From positions 1 to 54,234 of the forward strand of contig CBDUGV010000005.1 in the NCBI GenBank assembly GCA_965366815.1: a DNA stretch of 54,234 nt, in the 5' to 3' direction. Below are positions 41,898-50,158 of the stretch, piece by piece. Below the pieces are notes generated by a model. That model saw only the letters and a list, made by a program, of their open reading frames with translations. It was not told where the DNA came from and ran no database searches. Source of the stretch: an uncultured Bdellovibrionales bacterium. Its GTDB lineage: Bacteria > Bdellovibrionota_C > UBA2361 > SZUA-149. The position numbers were made by a program, and so were the translations under genes. The first letter of the stretch is position 1. Each line of letters starts with the position of its first letter.

Positions 41898-43589
41898 ATG
41901 TCTTCAAGAATCGGTGATCTGCTCCTTCAGCAGGGCATAATAGATGAAACGCAACTAGCGCAAGCCGTTGAGCAAGCTGCTGGTGCCGGCGAATTAATCA
42001 ACTCGTCCCTCACGAAACTTGGTTTCATCGAGGAAAGCGAGCTCACCAGTCTTATCAGCAAGCAATACGGGCTGCCGATCGTAAATCTCGAAGAGCATGA
42101 CGTTGATATCGATGTCATCACACTCATTCCACAGCACTTGGCGGTAAAACATCATATTCTCCCGCTGGAGCTCATTAATTCCACACTCACCGTGGCAATG
42201 GTTGATCCATCGAACATTATCGCGCTCAACGATGTAAAGTTCATAACCGGCTACGATGTCAGAGTCGTACTCGCCACTACGACCGATCTCAAGACCAAGC
42301 TCGAGAAAACCTTCGAAGAAGATGTCTCCTATGAGGGTATCTTTGAGGATTTCGATGATGACGTCGAAGTTGTCGAAGGTGGCGATGACATTGACCTTGG
42401 CGCGCTTGAGAAACAAACCGAAGACGCGCCGGTTGTTAAGCTGGTCAACGCGATCTTGACTGATGCGATTAAGAAAGGGGCTTCAGATATTCACCTTGAG
42501 CCTTATGAAAAAACATTTCGAGTCCGATTCCGGATTGATGGTGTGCTCTACGAAATCATGAAGCCACCACTGAAGCTGAAGAACGCTCTCACGTCGCGAA
42601 TCAAAATTATGGCCGAACTCGACATTGCTGAGCGACGGCTTCCGCAGGATGGTCGAATCAAGCTAAAACTCGGTAACCGACGCGAAATGGACTTTCGAGT
42701 CAGCGTACTACCGGGTCTGTTCGGTGAGAAAGTGGTCCTGCGACTCCTTGATAAGTCAAATCTCCAGACGGATATGACGAAGCTGGGTTTCTCGGAGCAA
42801 CAGCTCACTCATTTCAATGAAGCGATACAAAAACCCTATGGGATGGTACTTGTTACTGGACCAACTGGTTCTGGTAAGACCACCACACTGTATTCTGCGC
42901 TCGCAGAACTCAACAAATCAACGGTTAACATTTCGACTGCCGAGGATCCGGTGGAATTTAACCTCTTTGGTATCAACCAAACTCAAATGCACGAGGATAT
43001 CGGTCTTAACTTTGCCGCTGCACTTCGTAGTTTTCTCCGTCAGGATCCCGACATCATCATGGTCGGTGAGATTCGTGACTACGAAACCGCTGAGATTGCA
43101 ATTAAAGCATCTCTTACCGGTCACTTGGTGTTATCCACCCTTCACACCAACGACGCTCCTTCGACTATCAACCGACTTCTCAATATGGGGGTTGAGCCTT
43201 TCCTTGTCGCATCTTCGGTAAACATTGTGGTTGCCCAACGACTTGCACGACGAATTTGTGAGGATTGCAGAGAGAAACTCGACCTCAGTCCGGATGCGCT
43301 GATCGATGTTGGCGTACCGGCTGCTGAAGCGAAACACCTCGAAATATTTCATGGCACAGGTTGCAACAAATGCTCGAACACTGGCTACAAGGGGCGAGTC
43401 GCACTCTACGAATGTATGCCTATGTCCGAGGGGCTCAAGGAGCTCGTTCTCAATGGAGCATCTTCAGCAGAGATCAAACGAGAAGCAATCAAAGAAGGGA
43501 TGTACTCGCTGCGTATGTCCGGAATTGAAGCACTTCGAGTAGGGACGACCACGGTCGAGGAAGTACTCAGAACAACAGCGAATGACTAA
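41898..43589 (+). CDS. pilB: Type IV-A pilus assembly ATPase
   Basis: ASDIHLEP, RLPQDGR, GPTGSGKTT, LRQDPDIIMVGEIRD, STLHTN and tetracysteine motif. Confidence 0.97.
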   Translation: MSSRIGDLLLQQGIIDETQLAQAVEQAAGAGELINSSLTKLGFIEESELTSLISKQYGLPIVNLEEHDVDIDVITLIPQHLAVKHHILPLELINSTLTVAMVDPSNIIALNDVKFITGYDVRVVLATTTDLKTKLEKTFEEDVSYEGIFEDFDDDVEVVEGGDDIDLGALEKQTEDAPVVKLVNAILTDAIKKGASDIHLEPYEKTFRVRFRIDGVLYEIMKPPLKLKNALTSRIKIMAELDIAERRLPQDGRIKLKLGNRREMDFRVSVLPGLFGEKVVLRLLDKSNLQTDMTKLGFSEQQLTHFNEAIQKPYGMVLVTGPTGSGKTTTLYSALAELNKSTVNISTAEDPVEFNLFGINQTQMHEDIGLNFAAALRSFLRQDPDIIMVGEIRDYETAEIAIKASLTGHLVLSTLHTNDAPSTINRLLNMGVEPFLVASSVNIVVAQRLARRICEDCREKLDLSPDALIDVGVPAAEAKHLEIFHGTGCNKCSNTGYKGRVALYECMPMSEGLKELVLNGASSAEIKREAIKEGMYSLRMSGIEALRVGTTTVEEVLRTTAND

Positions 43590-43626
43590 CAACTAAATAT
43601 ACGCGAACCGACGAGAGGAACAAGCG

Positions 43627-44844
43627 ATGCCTGTCTTTGTATGGGAAGGTAAGACAAGTGACGGTAAGAAAGTCAAAGGCGAGATGGAGGCAGTCAGCCA
43701 ACAGCATGTCTTTAACGCACTCCGTGGCAAAAAAATCACACCGGCAATCAAGAAGATTCGGCCGAAGGGTGCAGGTCTTGATCGCGAGATAAACATCCCG
43801 GGCTTTGGTCCCAAGGCAAAGATGCGGGATGTCGTGATCTTCACTCGCCAGTTTGCGACGATGATCGACGCCGGTCTTCCGTTGGTTCAAGGGATTACAG
43901 TACTCGGGCAACAGCATGAGAATCCTGCTATGCGCAAGTGCCTGATGGATGTCAAGGAACGAGTAGAATCTGGCGGAACGCTCGCCGAAGCCTTGTCGCA
44001 TCACCCGAAAATCTTCGACGACCTCTTTGTCAACATGGTCGCAGCCGGGGAGACTGGTGGTATTCTAGATATCATCCTGGAGAGGCTCGCTATCTATTTG
44101 GAGAAAATGGATCAGCTGAAGCGCCAGGTAAAAACGGCAATGATCTATCCAGGTGTTGTTGTTTCGGCTGCCGCTATCGTAACCTCAATTCTCTTAATTT
44201 TCGTTATTCCCACATTTGCAGATATGTTCTCGGATTTTGGTGCCGCACTCCCCGCACCTACGAGAATGGTAATGTCGATGTCGGACTTCTTTGTAAAATA
44301 CTATCTCGCGATATTCCTGAGCTTTGGAATATTTATCTGGTTGTATAAACGCTTTTCCAACACCGACCGCGGGAAAGAAGTACTACACCCTCTGTTTCTC
44401 AAATTGCCGGTCTTCGGAGAAATCATCCGCAAAGTTGCGGTTGCACGGTTTACCCGAACGCTTGGAACCATGCTGAGTTCAGGTGTCCCGATCCTTGAAG
44501 CGCTGCGAATCTGCGCACGCACGGCTGGAAACAAGGTTGTGGAGAAAGAAGTCACAAACGTCCAGAACGGTATTTCTGAAGGAAAGGCAATCGCTGAACC
44601 GCTAAAAGACTCAACGATTTTTCCACCGATGGTAGTGCAAATGATCGCAGTCGGTGAATCAACAGGTGCACTTGATGCGATGTTGAGCAAAGTCGCAGAC
44701 TTTTACGAGAGTGAAGTAGAGAACGCGGTAAATGCGATGAAGCAGCTGATCGAACCGATCATGATTCTCGTGCTTGGAACCCTCATTGGTGGTCTCGTAG
44801 TCGCTATGTATCTGCCGATCTTTAAGCTCGGTTCTGTCATCTAG
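43627..44844 (+). CDS. pilC: Type IV pilus inner-membrane platform protein
   Basis: FTRQFATMIDAGLPL, GETGG, AMIYP, GESTGAL, IEP and MYLPIF motifs. Confidence 0.96.
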   Translation: MPVFVWEGKTSDGKKVKGEMEAVSQQHVFNALRGKKITPAIKKIRPKGAGLDREINIPGFGPKAKMRDVVIFTRQFATMIDAGLPLVQGITVLGQQHENPAMRKCLMDVKERVESGGTLAEALSHHPKIFDDLFVNMVAAGETGGILDIILERLAIYLEKMDQLKRQVKTAMIYPGVVVSAAAIVTSILLIFVIPTFADMFSDFGAALPAPTRMVMSMSDFFVKYYLAIFLSFGIFIWLYKRFSNTDRGKEVLHPLFLKLPVFGEIIRKVAVARFTRTLGTMLSSGVPILEALRICARTAGNKVVEKEVTNVQNGISEGKAIAEPLKDSTIFPPMVVQMIAVGESTGALDAMLSKVADFYESEVENAVNAMKQLIEPIMILVLGTLIGGLVVAMYLPIFKLGSVI

Positions 44845-44882
44845 CCTTCTACTTCTCAAGAAACGCGAACACAGTTAGAGCT

Positions 44883-46991
44883 ATGGGCGAACAAGAAACA
44901 TCGAAAGTCGACGGTAAGTCAAAGCAGCGCCTCGAAACACTTCGAGACAGCCTTTCGCTTCGTTCAGTTCAAGAGTTCTTCATCACGCCGAGCCAGGTTC
45001 TGCCACCGGACACGCTCCGTTCAATGCTCGAGCAACTTATTCTGATTCGTGTGGTTGTCCTCTCGCTTATTATGAGTGCGAGTGCCTGGGAAGGCCTCAC
45101 TTCGCTGTCTTCCTTGGTTGAAAAAAAGATCGTCTTCGTCACCATCGCTTTGACGTATGCAATTTCACTGGCAAATGCGATTCTCCTGCGAAATAGCAAG
45201 ACACTTCGCGGCTTTGCCTACGGGCAACTGACCATTGATGTACTGCTCTCGAGCCTGGCGATTTATGCGACCAGTTCACCGGTAATGATATCGTTCTATC
45301 TCTTTGTCATTGTCGCTGCTGCTTTCCTGCTCGGCAGAACAGGTGCCGTACTGGTCGCTGCGCTCAGTGGTATAAGTTACGCTGCTATAACCTTGTTAGG
45401 CGACGTGCTGAGATCCTCCCCCTTAGATATCCTCGGGGTCTATACCTCCTTAGTAGTCATTGCATTGGTAAGCTCCTACATTGCAAAACGATTGGAACTC
45501 GCCGGAGCAACAATTGCCTCTCAGGAGAAAGATCTCTCTGATTATAGTGCCCGGCAACGCCAACTCTTTGATGGCTTATCAGAAGGGGTGATCACTCTTG
45601 ATTTGAACGCCACAATCACGAGTATTAACGAGGCCGCGAAAGCAATCATTGGCCTCTCGGAATTAGGAGCTGAGCATTTCGTCGGCAAGCCGCTTCAACA
45701 AGTATTTGTAGACGATGCTTCAAAAGACATCTCCCGAGCGGTCAGTTCCTCGCAGCCCGGAAAAGACATCACTTCCGAAATCGCATTAACGAGACCAGGG
45801 GATACCTCAGAGGTATTTCTTTCCTATAGCGTCACAACCCTCAGCGACAGCAGCGGCGGGCAGAGTGGCAAAGTACTTCGCTTCTCAGATGTCAGCCGCC
45901 TCCATAGCATTCAAGAGCAACTCGATCTTCATGAGCGGATGACAGCCCTTCTTGCTGAAACTCAAGCACACAAGGCAAGCGGTACGTTTAATCGGCCACA
46001 TGGCATTCGAATGATTGGCACAAGCCCCGCGATGGAGCGAGTCTATCAACTCGTAGAGCGAGTTGCTGCAAGTGATGCTTCCTTGCTCATAAGCGGTGAA
46101 AGCGGCACAGGTAAAGAACTCATTGCTCGAAGTGTCCACGAGCAAGGACCTCGAGCTCATAAGCGATTTGTTGCAATTAACTGCGGTGCGATTCCCGAGA
46201 ACCTCATTGAAAGCGAGCTATTCGGTCACAAGAAAGGGGCATTTACGGGGGCAGTTGTCGATAAACTCGGTTTGTTTCAAGAAGCTGAGGGCGGAACCGT
46301 ATTCCTCGATGAAATCGGCGAACTCCCCCTTCACCTTCAAACAAAACTGCTGAGAGTGCTACAAGAGCGAACGATTCGAGCTGTTGGCGGAACGAGAGAC
46401 ATCCCGGTAGACGTTCGAATTTTAGCCGCAACCAATCGCGATTTACGTGAAGAAATCAGCGAGAATAGGTTTCGTGAAGATCTCTACTATCGACTCAATG
46501 TAGTAAACATTGTTGTTCCGCCGCTTCGCGACAGAAGAGAAGACATACCCTTGCTGGTTCAACATTTCATGCAAGCCGCAGCTCAAGGGGATGAGCAAAT
46601 CGCCCAAATATCTCCCGAGGCTCTACAGATTCTCAACAACTACGATTTCCCTGGCAACATACGTGAGCTTGAGAACTTAATCGAACGAGCACTCGTACTC
46701 GGAGGCCAAGCGATCCTCCCGAGCCATATCCCCGAAGAAGTTCGCAATTTCGGAGCACAGGATCACAGCTCAAACGGTTTTTCTGGAAACCAGCAAGGTA
46801 ATCGCGAAACTGAAATTCGAATTCTTCCAATAGATCTAGAAGGCGAACTCGCCCGACTGGAGAAAGACTACCTCAACCGTGCCCTGGCGGAATCTGGCGG
46901 TGTGAAGAAGCAAGCAGCAGAGCTACTCGGCCTTAACTTTCGTTCTTTTCGCTATCGGCTCAAAAAATACGGCCTTCAAGAGCAAGACTAG
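44883..46991 (+). CDS. PilS-PilR chimera: PilS-like TM domain + PAS + sigma54 AAA+ activator + Fis-type HTH
   Basis: Multiple TMs, PAS (LSEGVITLDLNATITSINEAA), then GESGTGKE, ESELFGH, GAFTGA, FLDEIGE, FREDLYYRL, FPGNIREL and a PilR-type tail AAELLGLNFRSFRYRLKKY. No H-box, HATPase or receiver. Confidence 0.9.
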   Translation: MGEQETSKVDGKSKQRLETLRDSLSLRSVQEFFITPSQVLPPDTLRSMLEQLILIRVVVLSLIMSASAWEGLTSLSSLVEKKIVFVTIALTYAISLANAILLRNSKTLRGFAYGQLTIDVLLSSLAIYATSSPVMISFYLFVIVAAAFLLGRTGAVLVAALSGISYAAITLLGDVLRSSPLDILGVYTSLVVIALVSSYIAKRLELAGATIASQEKDLSDYSARQRQLFDGLSEGVITLDLNATITSINEAAKAIIGLSELGAEHFVGKPLQQVFVDDASKDISRAVSSSQPGKDITSEIALTRPGDTSEVFLSYSVTTLSDSSGGQSGKVLRFSDVSRLHSIQEQLDLHERMTALLAETQAHKASGTFNRPHGIRMIGTSPAMERVYQLVERVAASDASLLISGESGTGKELIARSVHEQGPRAHKRFVAINCGAIPENLIESELFGHKKGAFTGAVVDKLGLFQEAEGGTVFLDEIGELPLHLQTKLLRVLQERTIRAVGGTRDIPVDVRILAATNRDLREEISENRFREDLYYRLNVVNIVVPPLRDRREDIPLLVQHFMQAAAQGDEQIAQISPEALQILNNYDFPGNIRELENLIERALVLGGQAILPSHIPEEVRNFGAQDHSSNGFSGNQQGNRETEIRILPIDLEGELARLEKDYLNRALAESGGVKKQAAELLGLNFRSFRYRLKKYGLQEQD

Positions 46992-47305
46992 TTCAGCCGA
47001 TCCTCTCTATCGCGACCTCAATGATGCGATCCGATCGCAGCTAAAACGCACTACACCTTTGCACTACTAGCCCCTCGCGGCCGACAACCCTACATGAACA
47101 TCGATAGGCTCAGACTCTAACCCCTCAACAGCACTGAGTATTTCACTTCTCTATAAATCTAAGGAAAATAGGTGCAATTTATGCAGACTTTTTTGAACCA
47201 GGCACATCTTAAGCCTAACTCACTTTGTCTATAGGAATATCGCGAAATCGGTCTTCATTAAGGGGAAGTTGAGTCCGGGCTAAGAGGTCATTCTGTGTTG
47301 GAAGT

Positions 47306-47348
47306 GACAATTATTGTCGTTGGCTCTGCCAAAGAACAATTTTTGTCG
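47306..47348. promoter_or_regulatory. Two candidate enhancer (UAS) boxes for the pilA activator
   Basis: GACAATTATTGTCG (47306-47319, palindromic core) and AACAATTTTTGTCG (47335-47348), about 140-180 bp upstream of the -24 element. Confidence 0.55.
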
Positions 47349-47486
47349 CCAACTGTGTATCAGGGTTATCGCTTAGATCTGTGGTGGGGAAAAGGTGGTG
47401 GATAACACTGGACGCTAAGGTCCTGAGAATCAAAGGAATATTAGCCAAGAAATTTGTAAGGGGAATCCCTTACTTTTTCTAAGACT

Positions 47487-47502
47487 TGGCACTCCTTTTG
47501 CT
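47487..47502 (+). promoter_or_regulatory. Sigma54 (RpoN) -24/-12 promoter of pilA
   Basis: TGGCAC-TCCTT-TTGCT matches TGGCAC-N5-TTGC(W); GG at 47488-89 and GC at 47500-01. Confidence 0.88.
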
Positions 47503-47669
47503 TCTTAGAAGGCGTCCTCGTCGGTTCGCCTGCTGCAAGCAGAGGGCTATCCGGAAGCGCTTTGCGCAGATGGGCACAACTGGAGGGCTCAAAGGAGATG
47601 TGAAAACAAAGCCTTTGAGAGTTAGGTAACTTTAATAATGCAAATAATATATTTACGAGGAAACATAGA

Positions 47670-48083
47670 ATGAGAAGCGAAAAAGGTTTTACTCTCATTG
47701 AATTACTAGTTGTTGTAGCCATTATTGGTATTTTGGCTGCAATTGCGATTCCTCAGTTTGCTGAGTACAAAACTCGGGCGTTTAACTCCCGTGCTCAGTC
47801 TGACTTGAGAAACGCGTTAACGGCAGAAGAAGCGTATTTCGTAGATAACGAAGAGTATGCTGCTTGTGCAGATGCTGCATGTTCAACCACTCTTCCTGGT
47901 TTCGTACTCAGTGAAGACGTATCTATCTCGATGATTGTCGGTGGTAGTGCAAACGACGAGTTTGCTGGACAGAGCTGTCACGCTCGTGGAGACCGCGACT
48001 ATGACTGGCGTTCATCTGGTGCAAACGCAAACATCATGCAGAATACCGCTGTAACAAGCTGTGCTGCAGCAGGAACCTTCTAA
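47670..48083 (+). CDS. pilA: Type IV-A major pilin
   Basis: Prepilin site KG|FTLIELLVVVAIIGILAAIAIPQF; GAGGA RBS; 131-aa mature protein with 4 Cys; has its own promoter and terminator. Confidence 0.93.
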   Translation: MRSEKGFTLIELLVVVAIIGILAAIAIPQFAEYKTRAFNSRAQSDLRNALTAEEAYFVDNEEYAACADAACSTTLPGFVLSEDVSISMIVGGSANDEFAGQSCHARGDRDYDWRSSGANANIMQNTAVTSCAAAGTF

Positions 48084-48228: not shown

Positions 48229-49152
48229 ATGGGAAACCGTGGGAAAAATCAGTGGATTCAAGGAAGTGCGAATGTATGCCTGGTGGTATCGCTGCTGGCA
48301 GCTACCAGTATCTTCTGGTCTCGCGGAGAACTGCGGCGAATCCAAGCATCAGTTTCCGTCGCCGCCGAGTCTCCCCCACTCTATTTGCCAGAGATAGAAA
48401 AAGTCCGAATGATCACATTGGGATTTGATAACTTCGCTGCCGATATTCTCTGGTTCAACACGCTCAACTACTTCGGCAAGCAAATGGCAACTGAGCGCGA
48501 CTATCGCTGGCTCGGTCATATGTGCCAATTGGTTACCGACCTCAATCCAAAGACTCGACCGATAATAGAGTTTTGCTCGACTATGCTCTCCTGGGTTGCG
48601 GATCAAAAAGATCAAAGCACGATAGTTCTAAAAAAAGCGATCGCCGCTGAACCCAACTATTGGCGACATCGCTATCTCCTCGGTTTTAACTATTGGTACT
48701 TCCATGAGGACTTCCAAGCCGCAGGAGAAATGCTGCAATCCGCGGCTCAACTTCCAAACAGCCCACCCTTTGTTGCATCGCTCGCAGCCCGTATCACGCT
48801 TAACGAGAGCAGCCCTCAGATGGCGATTAGCTTTCTTCAAAACTTAATCAAGCGCGAGCCCGACAGAAACGCAAAAGCGGCGCTCGAAGAAAAACTCAAG
48901 CTCGCGATCATCAGTCTCGACCTTGAGCGACTTCAAGAGATTGCCAATCGCTACGAGAAAGAAAAGGGAAAGAAAGCTGAAAGTCTGCAAGAGATAGTCG
49001 AAGCCGAACTATTGCCTCATATTCCATTCGACCCATTTGGCGATATTTATGTCATCAACCCGGAAACGCTGCGCCCGGACACAAGCTCATCAAGGAAAGG
49101 CTTGGACTTTCCCGGTAAAACAGCGCGGACTGGACTGGCGAGTAAACACTAG
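48229..49152 (+). CDS. Pilin-associated TPR-like protein (XapA/PilG-like position)
   Basis: Signal/TM segment, LGFDNFAADILW, TDLNP, LGFNYWYF and DPFG; sits between the pilin and an ABC transporter. Confidence 0.7.
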   Translation: MGNRGKNQWIQGSANVCLVVSLLAATSIFWSRGELRRIQASVSVAAESPPLYLPEIEKVRMITLGFDNFAADILWFNTLNYFGKQMATERDYRWLGHMCQLVTDLNPKTRPIIEFCSTMLSWVADQKDQSTIVLKKAIAAEPNYWRHRYLLGFNYWYFHEDFQAAGEMLQSAAQLPNSPPFVASLAARITLNESSPQMAISFLQNLIKREPDRNAKAALEEKLKLAIISLDLERLQEIANRYEKEKGKKAESLQEIVEAELLPHIPFDPFGDIYVINPETLRPDTSSSRKGLDFPGKTARTGLASKH

Positions 49153-49159
49153 AGAGACG

Positions 49160-50158
49160 ATGAACGATATCATTCTCGAAATAGATAGTTTAGTGAAGTC
49201 GTTTCGTTCGTATTGGACCTTTCGTCCCATTCCGGCCGTCACTGACGTAAGCTTATCTGTCTACCGTGGAGAGTCCTTTGGCTTTTTAGGTCACAACGGA
49301 GCTGGCAAAACCACCACTATCAAATGCATCATGGGACTGATACACAAAACCTCAGGTGCTATCTCGCTCAACGGCGAGGAACTGAAAACCCCAGATCAGC
49401 GCGCCCATATCGGCTATCTTCCAGAGCATCCGTATTTCTACGATCACCTTACCGTTGAAGAAACGCTCGACTTCTTTGCTGCACTCTACGGCATTGAACC
49501 AAAAGGACGGGCTGCAAGAGTCGAAGAGACGCTTGAGCGTGTCGGCTTACTCGATAGAAAGCGCTCGTCGGTTCGCTCTCTTTCAAAGGGCTTACAGCAG
49601 CGACTCGGCTTGGCTCAGGCGATAATCAATCGACCAACGCTGCTTATTCTCGATGAGCCGTTTTCCGGTCTCGACCCAATTGGTCGAATGGAGGTTCGTG
49701 AACTCATTCTGCAATTGCGGGCCGAAGGAACGACCATCTTCATGTCCTCGCATATCCTTTCTGACGTTGAAGATATCTGTGACCGAGTTTCGATCATGGC
49801 CCGAGGTCGGGTCGAGCATGTATTCGACCTCCACGAGGCATCAGATTTATTTGGCGAACGATTCGAACTGAGCCTCATGAGTAAAGGAGTTGAGGCAGAT
49901 CTCAGGCAATCAGTACTGGCCGAGGCTTCAGATTGCGAACTTCGTAAAACAGCGCAAGGAGACCTTTTGGTCGCATCGTTCACTAGTCGAGCGAGCGCAG
50001 AGCAGGCATTGCAAGCTGCTCTTACCCAAAACGTCCAGGTTATGAATTTTAAGAATGCTGGGCTGACGCTTGAAGAAGTGTTTATGAAAGTTACTGAAGA
50101 ATCAACGAGGAAGGTAGACGATGAAGATATTCGTCATAGCTCTGAACACCTTTCGTGA
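49160..50158 (+). CDS. ABC transporter ATPase (PilH/XapD-like)
   Basis: [28 protein letters not shown] and SSH; start moved to ATG 49160. Confidence 0.9.

Follow-up and report, generated by a model that had tools for sequence, protein, structure and literature searches.

How is a type IV pilin gene controlled when one gene stands where the membrane kinase PilS and its response regulator PilR are usually encoded? The question is raised by an uncultured Bdellovibrionales bacterium (GenBank assembly GCA_965366815.1), in which we analysed positions 1–54,234 of contig CBDUGV010000005.1, the whole of which is here called the window. Between pilC and pilA, where an initial annotation made from the letters alone had seen a pilS-pilR pair collapsed into one reading frame, the forward strand indeed holds a single open reading frame (ORF; 44883–46991) of 702 amino acids, here called the fused gene. 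We consider it probable that adjacent pilS and pilR genes were joined in frame to give a membrane-integral, one-component bacterial enhancer-binding protein (bEBP), by which pilA is switched on without phosphotransfer and for which pilin is the likeliest signal.

The fused protein begins with six transmembrane (TM) segments, placed by a hydropathy scan at about residues 48–68, 83–101, 112–130, 133–151, 154–172 and 183–201. This count agrees with the helices of an AlphaFold2 (AF2) model (42–73, 78–104, 108–130, 133–172 and 180–230; mean predicted local distance difference test score, pLDDT, 84.8), and with hhalign the two define a PilS-type sensor domain at residues ~42–201 (45006–45485), in which Arg56 lies in TM1 and Asp119 in TM3. 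Since the number of helices is even, both termini of the domain can face the cytoplasm. It is followed by a PAS domain (residues 223–340, 45549–45902; Pfam PAS_4, E 1.3e-6, and PAS_8, E 5e-6), a sigma54-interaction AAA+ domain with its lid (residues 377–628, 46011–46766; Sigma54_activat at 377–543, E 6e-73, and AAA_lid_14 at 549–628) and a Fis-type HTH_8 DNA-binding domain (residues 656–696, 46848–46970; E 2.7e-13). The Walker A motif GESGTGKE (residues 405–412, 46095–46118) and GAFTGA (residues 452–457, 46236–46253) are intact, and G405–E412, G452, F454, T455, A457, D476 and E477 were invariant or nearly so in 43 sequences. By every sequence test applied, the protein is a bEBP. Pfam found no HisKA, HATPase_c or Response_reg match in the ORF at E ≤ 0.01; there would thus be no phosphorelay, and kinase/phosphatase switching and aspartyl phosphorylation would be impossible. 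On all these points, from the intact output motifs and HTH to the missing kinase and receiver domains and the resulting signalling without phosphorylation, the initial annotation had read the protein in the same way. The best NCBIfam match was PrdR (370 bits against a cut-off of 795), no NCBIfam equivalog cut-off being reached, and no solved structure matched residues 1–355 by sequence.

The two halves of the protein align to different members of the split pair. By BLASTP, residues 40–364 matched residues 1–339 of Lujinxingia vulgaris PilS (25% identity, E 1.5e-23), and residues 376–700 matched residues 154–469 of the PilR of that species (52% identity, E 1e-107); the PilR of a Geobacteraceae metagenome-assembled genome (MAG) was 57% identical to the C-terminal part, and alignments to PilR began at PilR residue 143–169. 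Profile comparison by hhalign of 43 fused proteins with 31 PilS kinases (probability 100, E 1.2e-46) spanned residues 39–356 of the window's protein and 2–325 of the kinases, ending at ...ERLAAI. The H-box (HEIRNPL) of the kinases has its phospho-accepting His about 9 residues past the point where this homology ends, and at their invariant Gly (83/84), which aligns to fused residue 357, 31 of 46 fused proteins carry Leu instead. Three hallmark residues of the sensor are kept in both groups: Arg56 (45/46 fused proteins, 83/84 kinases), Gln115 (42/46 and 80/84) and Asp119 (46/46 and 82/84).

The joint between the halves is short. A helix, DVSRLHSIQEQLDLHERMTALL (residues 336–357, 45888–45953), is separated by 19 residues from MIGTSPAM, which begins at residue 377 (46011); the initial annotation had placed the helix at ~45890–45955 and allowed ~20 residues for the joint, close to what we find. 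Conservation, the AF2 model and hhalign delimit a conserved helix at residues 338–365 (45894–45977), a remnant of the helix that leads from PAS to DHp in PilS. Its consensus, LxLHExMtxLL, is conserved across 46 family members, and the next ~11–25 residues differ among them in both length and sequence. In the window's protein this variable linker, the fusion joint, comprises residues 366–376 (45978–46010), with pLDDT below 50 at 366–372 and no DSSP helix or strand at 366–381. Mean column conservation was 0.23 at residues 361–380, compared with 0.55 before and 0.58–0.83 after.

Gene order and phylogeny point to the same descent. Split loci of other phyla, among them those of Geobacteraceae (L016) and Lujinxingia vulgaris (L044), run pilT-pilC-pilS-pilR-pilA and continue with a TPR-like ORF and an ABC ATPase gene. 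Because the same two genes trail pilA in the split loci, in the window and in its relatives, the fused gene fills exactly the pilS-pilR slot. A FastTree phylogeny of 131 AAA+-HTH sequences placed 43 of 45 fused proteins in one clade (support 98) nested among PilRs; P0010 and L094 (no Walker A match) and the duplicates P0014 and P0016 had been left out. In an IQ-TREE analysis of 47 rows, chosen after the first tree had been seen, fused proteins and PilRs formed one clade (98) that excluded 12 other bEBPs, four of them from this genome, and the main fused clade (97) was sister to Geobacteraceae PilR (92). The fused proteins P0041 and P0149 fall elsewhere among the PilRs, and a single origin was not rejected (approximately unbiased test, p = 0.337). 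The other bEBPs of this genome resemble PilR less (41–47%, compared with 54%) and lie outside the PilR clade. We detected no canonical PilR in the genome, and at 90% completeness its absence is unproven. As far as sequence can show it, a two-component system has here collapsed into a membrane-integral one-component activator, and the simplest history would be a single in-frame deletion that began where the PilS DHp helix starts and extended through the PilR receiver and linker.

The source genome is a fragmented MAG (416 contigs), so we considered whether the ORF is a chimeric assembly or a decaying, functionless remnant of pilS-pilR; a misassembled junction or a strain-specific deletion was also what the initial annotation had named as fatal to its reading. 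In the relatives' loci that we fetched, the fused gene lay directly 3' of pilC in 23 of 23, each with the same unbroken ORF, 20 at full length (659–737 amino acids), two cut by contig ends and one (G010) a 578-residue TM-AAA+ form without PAS. Among relatives of the window's genome, 33 of 41 genomes had a match, and the sensor half (residues 1–375) matched four database proteins of the same architecture (692–714 amino acids, 39–49% identity over that half). Searching 1.84 billion representatives with the sensor half returned 2428 proteins at E ≤ 1e-3, and among the best 150 of these, 29 had an AAA+ domain, 99 were histidine kinases and 22 were neither (fragments or multi-PAS proteins). In a wider sample comprising one class (96 genomes, at least 85% complete), 51 genomes had a match, which in about 37 was a TM and PAS match within an open frame of 665–789 amino acids; no frame of PilS-kinase size was seen among the matches in this sample. 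A full-length query for related loci was dominated by the conserved AAA+ domain, recovering the fused form in 1 of 80 loci (L015), and also supplied the split PilS-PilR comparators. The architecture that the initial annotation had proposed to look for in other genomes is thus present in many of them.

The PAS-less fused variants (L131, G010:C116, 1349–3085; P0052; P0120) have the TM domain joined almost directly to AAA+ in 575–582 amino acids, and the G010 gene also directly follows pilC. Two loci from other lineages of the sampled class, L125 (G053) and L126 (G087), have pilB-pilC and then one to three pilA genes with no regulator between. In the nearest Atlas cluster the commonest phylum was Bdellovibrionota, phylum being known for 11 of 54 members.

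Continuity over 45900–46020, a further check named in the initial annotation, was borne out by separately assembled reads. A Logan contig of 8082 bp from run X1 spans 44800–47800 with 8 substitutions, no indel and no joint, thereby crossing the fusion joint unbroken, and a 332-base contig from run X2 bridges 45871–46202; the three Logan runs belong to one marine metagenome study that may include the source sample and would be weak support alone. A search for sequencing runs containing this DNA listed no RNA run. The catalytic motifs, as noted, are invariant or nearly so. The fused architecture is conserved over an order and much of a class, and because the fused ORF is conserved across genomes, misassembly or gene decay is ruled out for practical purposes; we give an artefact next to no probability.

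The spacer before pilA, which starts 678 bp past the end of the fused gene, carries the sequence elements expected of a bEBP target. The downstream sigma54 promoter that the initial annotation had called intact is TGGCACTCCTTTTGC (−24/−12 type, 47487–47501, forward strand), the one zero-mismatch copy of TGGCAC-N5-TTGC in the window, with pilA starting 169 bp beyond it; matches with up to two mismatches were no more frequent than chance (46 observed, 47 expected). TGGCA(C/T)-N5-TTGC(T/A) was present in 12 of 12 fused-pilA spacers, those of the window and of 11 relatives with pilA close behind, and rpoN, encoding sigma54, is present in the same genome. A repeat scan and motif conservation identified two tandem palindromes of GACA-N5-TGTC type, GACAATTATTGTC and AACAATTTTTGTC (47306–47347), 29 bp apart and ~150–180 bp upstream of the promoter, as a candidate enhancer (upstream activating sequence); the strict form GACA-W5-TGTC has a single copy in the window. 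With both strands counted, the k-mer GACAAAA was found in 11 of 12 upstream regions, usually inside GACA-N5-TGTC and often twice. Of 10 split PilR loci that were scanned, 3 also have a GACA-N5-TGTC palindrome close to pilA (those of Geobacteraceae, Lujinxingia and Desulfobacterales), and a palindrome common to fused and split loci fits the very conserved HTH.

Two further features of this spacer were noted. A perfect 8-bp inverted repeat, TTCTAAGA...TCTTAGAA (47477–47510), flanks the sigma54 promoter exactly; some other factor might use it as an operator, or it may have arisen by chance. The pilA leader is about 155 nt long (47513–47669) and contains an 8-bp hairpin (47588–47595 with 47612–47619). 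At gathering thresholds no Rfam family matched the window, and at E ≤ 1 none matched 46950–47720, so that no known riboswitch or leader was found upstream of pilA.

These observations suggest how the protein might work. Fusion would have removed all sequence from a point just short of the phospho-accepting His of PilS up to the AAA+ domain of PilR, receiver and linker included. The PilS input that is retained comprises the six TM helices with a buried Arg/Asp pair, the PAS domain and the opening turns of the dimerisation helix; a short variable tether, modelled with low confidence, links it to the PilR output, a sigma54 AAA+ ATPase with a Fis-type HTH. From its place in the membrane, the fused protein would bind the tandem GACA-N5-TGTC sites upstream of pilA; its AAA+ ring would form and remodel sigma54-RNA polymerase at TGGCAC-N5-TTGC, leading to pilin transcription. 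The state of the dimeric TM/PAS sensor would set ring assembly directly, through the flexible tether and with no phosphotransfer. The AAA+ domains of NtrC1 and DctD are kept as inactive dimers by the receiver together with a coiled-coil linker, and the retained PilS helix could, by analogy, play a similar part. Some lineages shed PAS and kept the TM domain, suggesting that the essential input is the TM domain. The signal would most likely be the inner-membrane pool of pilin, which when abundant would bind the TM domain and hold the activator off. The model here is P. aeruginosa PilS, which, in the available excerpts of PMC6058289 and PMC13170266, binds PilA directly through its six TM segments and, when PilA is in excess, dephosphorylates PilR.

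Several points weigh against this account. Pilin sensing, which the initial annotation had also inferred, is argued from the likeness to P. aeruginosa PilS and from the conserved intramembrane Arg/Asp, so that the step from kinase to activator is one of analogy. The loss of PAS in one lineage (G010) and in P0052 and P0120 means that PAS is not essential to the design. The joint is poorly conserved and modelled with low confidence, and rigid helix-to-helix signalling through it is therefore unlikely. In L108, L109, L111, L131 and L015, pilA is not adjacent to the fused gene. In the single case described of a bEBP kept at the membrane, RedR2 held by BtdS, that location limits its access to its promoters (PMC10084136, in excerpt). 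The PilS-like TM and PAS regions of the initial annotation stood in part: PAS is matched by Pfam and six TM segments are present, and the window protein alone has no match to Pfam 6TM_PilS (PF25323) even at E ≤ 10. The Pfam cut-off for this domain was passed by the family members P0004, P0041 and P0149, and the PilS kinship of the window protein accordingly follows from profile and family evidence, not from a Pfam match of its own. A complex prediction of the TM domain (residues 35–215, 43-row alignment) with PilA 1–60 (11 rows) gave no verdict (score 0.00, without controls) and speaks neither for nor against contact.

Two other mechanisms would use the same domains differently. The protein might be stored inactive in the membrane until a protease cuts it at the joint (~366–381), freeing a soluble, constitutively active AAA+-HTH fragment. 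Several bEBPs do turn constitutively active once their N-terminal regulatory domain is removed, and a joint of variable length and sequence, modelled with low confidence, is where such a cut could fall; membrane sequestration likewise keeps RedR2 off its promoters (PMC10084136, in excerpt). Against release, the joint shows no conserved cleavage motif, the ORFs compared across the loci include no conserved protease gene, and membrane-integral regulators such as CadC are reported, in the accessible parts of PMC6320335 and PMC7888679, to act on DNA from the membrane. We regard release by proteolysis as unlikely.

Alternatively, the TM domain might merely localise the activator, for instance to the pole near the pilus machine, its activity being either constitutive or governed by some cue other than pilin that PAS reads, in which case pilin would not be sensed. 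PAS domains commonly bind small ligands, the title of a study by Ethier and Boyd (2000), cited in PMC6058289 (seen in excerpt), ties the PilS TM domain to polar targeting, and pilin binding by the fused protein is here argued by analogy. Buried Arg56 and Asp119, together with Gln115, are nevertheless kept as strictly as in the PilS kinases, which suggests more than anchoring, and variants exist that retain the TM domain without PAS, so PAS cannot be the sole input. A role in anchoring only is, to us, improbable. We prefer direct control of a membrane-bound activator by its PilS-derived sensor.

The surrounding genes are those of a type IV pilus locus on the forward strand. Upstream lie pilB, the extension ATPase (41898–43589; Pfam T2SSE, 3e-145, and MshEN), and pilC, the platform protein (43627–44844; T2SSF, 4e-72). 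Downstream, pilA (47670–48083; Pfam N_methyl and alignment) encodes a type IVa major pilin with the leader MRSEKG followed by FTLIEL. A conserved pair then follows at 48229–50158, a TPR-like ORF (307 amino acids; TPR-named Atlas clusters) and an ABC ATPase gene (ABC_tran), which from its listed TTG start (49037), probably set too far upstream, shares 116 nt with the ORF before it. This pair seems to resemble the pilG/pilH/pilI genes that follow pilA in Myxococcus. Between pilB and pilC (43589–43627) the window has no pilT, and of the 20 relatives fetched first only L101 has one there; a pilT-like gene occupies that position in the split loci of Geobacteraceae, Lujinxingia, L034 and L078. L099 (G003:C125), from the same family, has pilC, the fused gene and pilA, although a pilB between glyQS and pilC was not detected. 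Elsewhere in the genome, the only other 6TM_PilS protein is a 420-residue kinase (contig C190, L001, 1381–2643) with 6TM_PilS, HisKA and HATPase domains and no PAS. Its neighbour (C190, 2636–3175) is a 179-residue regulator with REC and HTH_8, and in domain layout the two match the RegB/RegA-like GrtK/GrtR pair (PMC12918730).

How does the fused protein compare with known systems? With the PilS-PilR pair of P. aeruginosa, Geobacter and Myxococcus it shares the genomic slot between pilC and pilA, followed by the TPR-like ORF and ABC ATPase; a six-TM and PAS sensor with the same Arg, Gln and Asp; an AAA+-HTH of the PilR clade; and a sigma54 promoter with a related GACA-N5-TGTC site at pilA. Unlike that pair, it is one polypeptide and not two, without HisKA and its H-box, HATPase_c, the receiver and the linker from receiver to AAA+. 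Lacking H-box and HATPase on the one hand and a receiver on the other, it cannot be filed as either PilS or PilR. Cytoplasmic one-component bEBPs have the same order of PAS, sigma54 AAA+ and HTH_8 and also work without phosphorylation; these proteins are soluble, whereas the fused protein has a six-helix PilS-type membrane domain and an AAA+ domain that groups with PilR.

Membrane control of transcription activators has several forms. PspF with PspA is one bEBP that is controlled through the membrane in trans, its partner being a separate protein and the binding inhibitory and reversible. RedR2 with BtdS (PMC10084136, in excerpt) is likewise a sigma54 activator physically coupled to the inner membrane, again by inhibitory, reversible binding to a separate membrane partner, whereas the membrane domain of the fused protein is covalent. 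Activators of the ToxR/CadC type, as described in the accessible parts of PMC6320335 and PMC7888679, are DNA-binding proteins that stay permanently in the inner membrane and meet their chromosomal site there. They differ in having a single TM helix, a periplasmic sensor and an OmpR-type winged helix, in acting at sigma70 promoters and in the absence of an ATPase or ring; with six TM segments, PAS, AAA+ and HTH_8, the fused protein resembles them in location only.

The initial annotation did not know this wiring from type IV pili, and full-text searches, with subscription journals and bioRxiv supplements outside their scope, likewise found no description of a PilS-PilR fusion or of a transmembrane bEBP. 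One Atlas cluster is named 'PilS-like transmembrane/AAA...' (commonest phylum Ca. Binatota); the architecture is thus catalogued under automatic database names, and we found it uninterpreted. Among relatives, B. bacteriovorus HD100 has separate pilS and pilR after pilC (PMC4237445, in excerpt), and pilRS is reported absent from Bacteriovorax marinus SJ in the part of PMC6060248 that was available. That absence may be explained by a fused gene escaping searches for separate genes.

The locus offers a natural, lineage-wide case in which a two-component system has been reduced to one component in a fixed genomic position and its break points can still be recognised. It also places an AAA+ enhancer-binding protein, a type of activator that needs oligomerisation and DNA looping, permanently in the membrane. 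Because its output can be read without kinase/phosphatase kinetics, the fused protein would be a simpler system in which to study sensing by the PilS membrane domain. More tentatively, and with somewhat less than even confidence, we suggest that it may be the first recognised membrane-integral sigma54 activator, in which a buried Arg/Asp pair might read pilin occupancy and translate it into assembly or disassembly of the AAA+ ring, so that pilin autoregulation without phosphorylation would be the standard arrangement in a large, probably predatory (Bdellovibrionota-like) marine and freshwater lineage.

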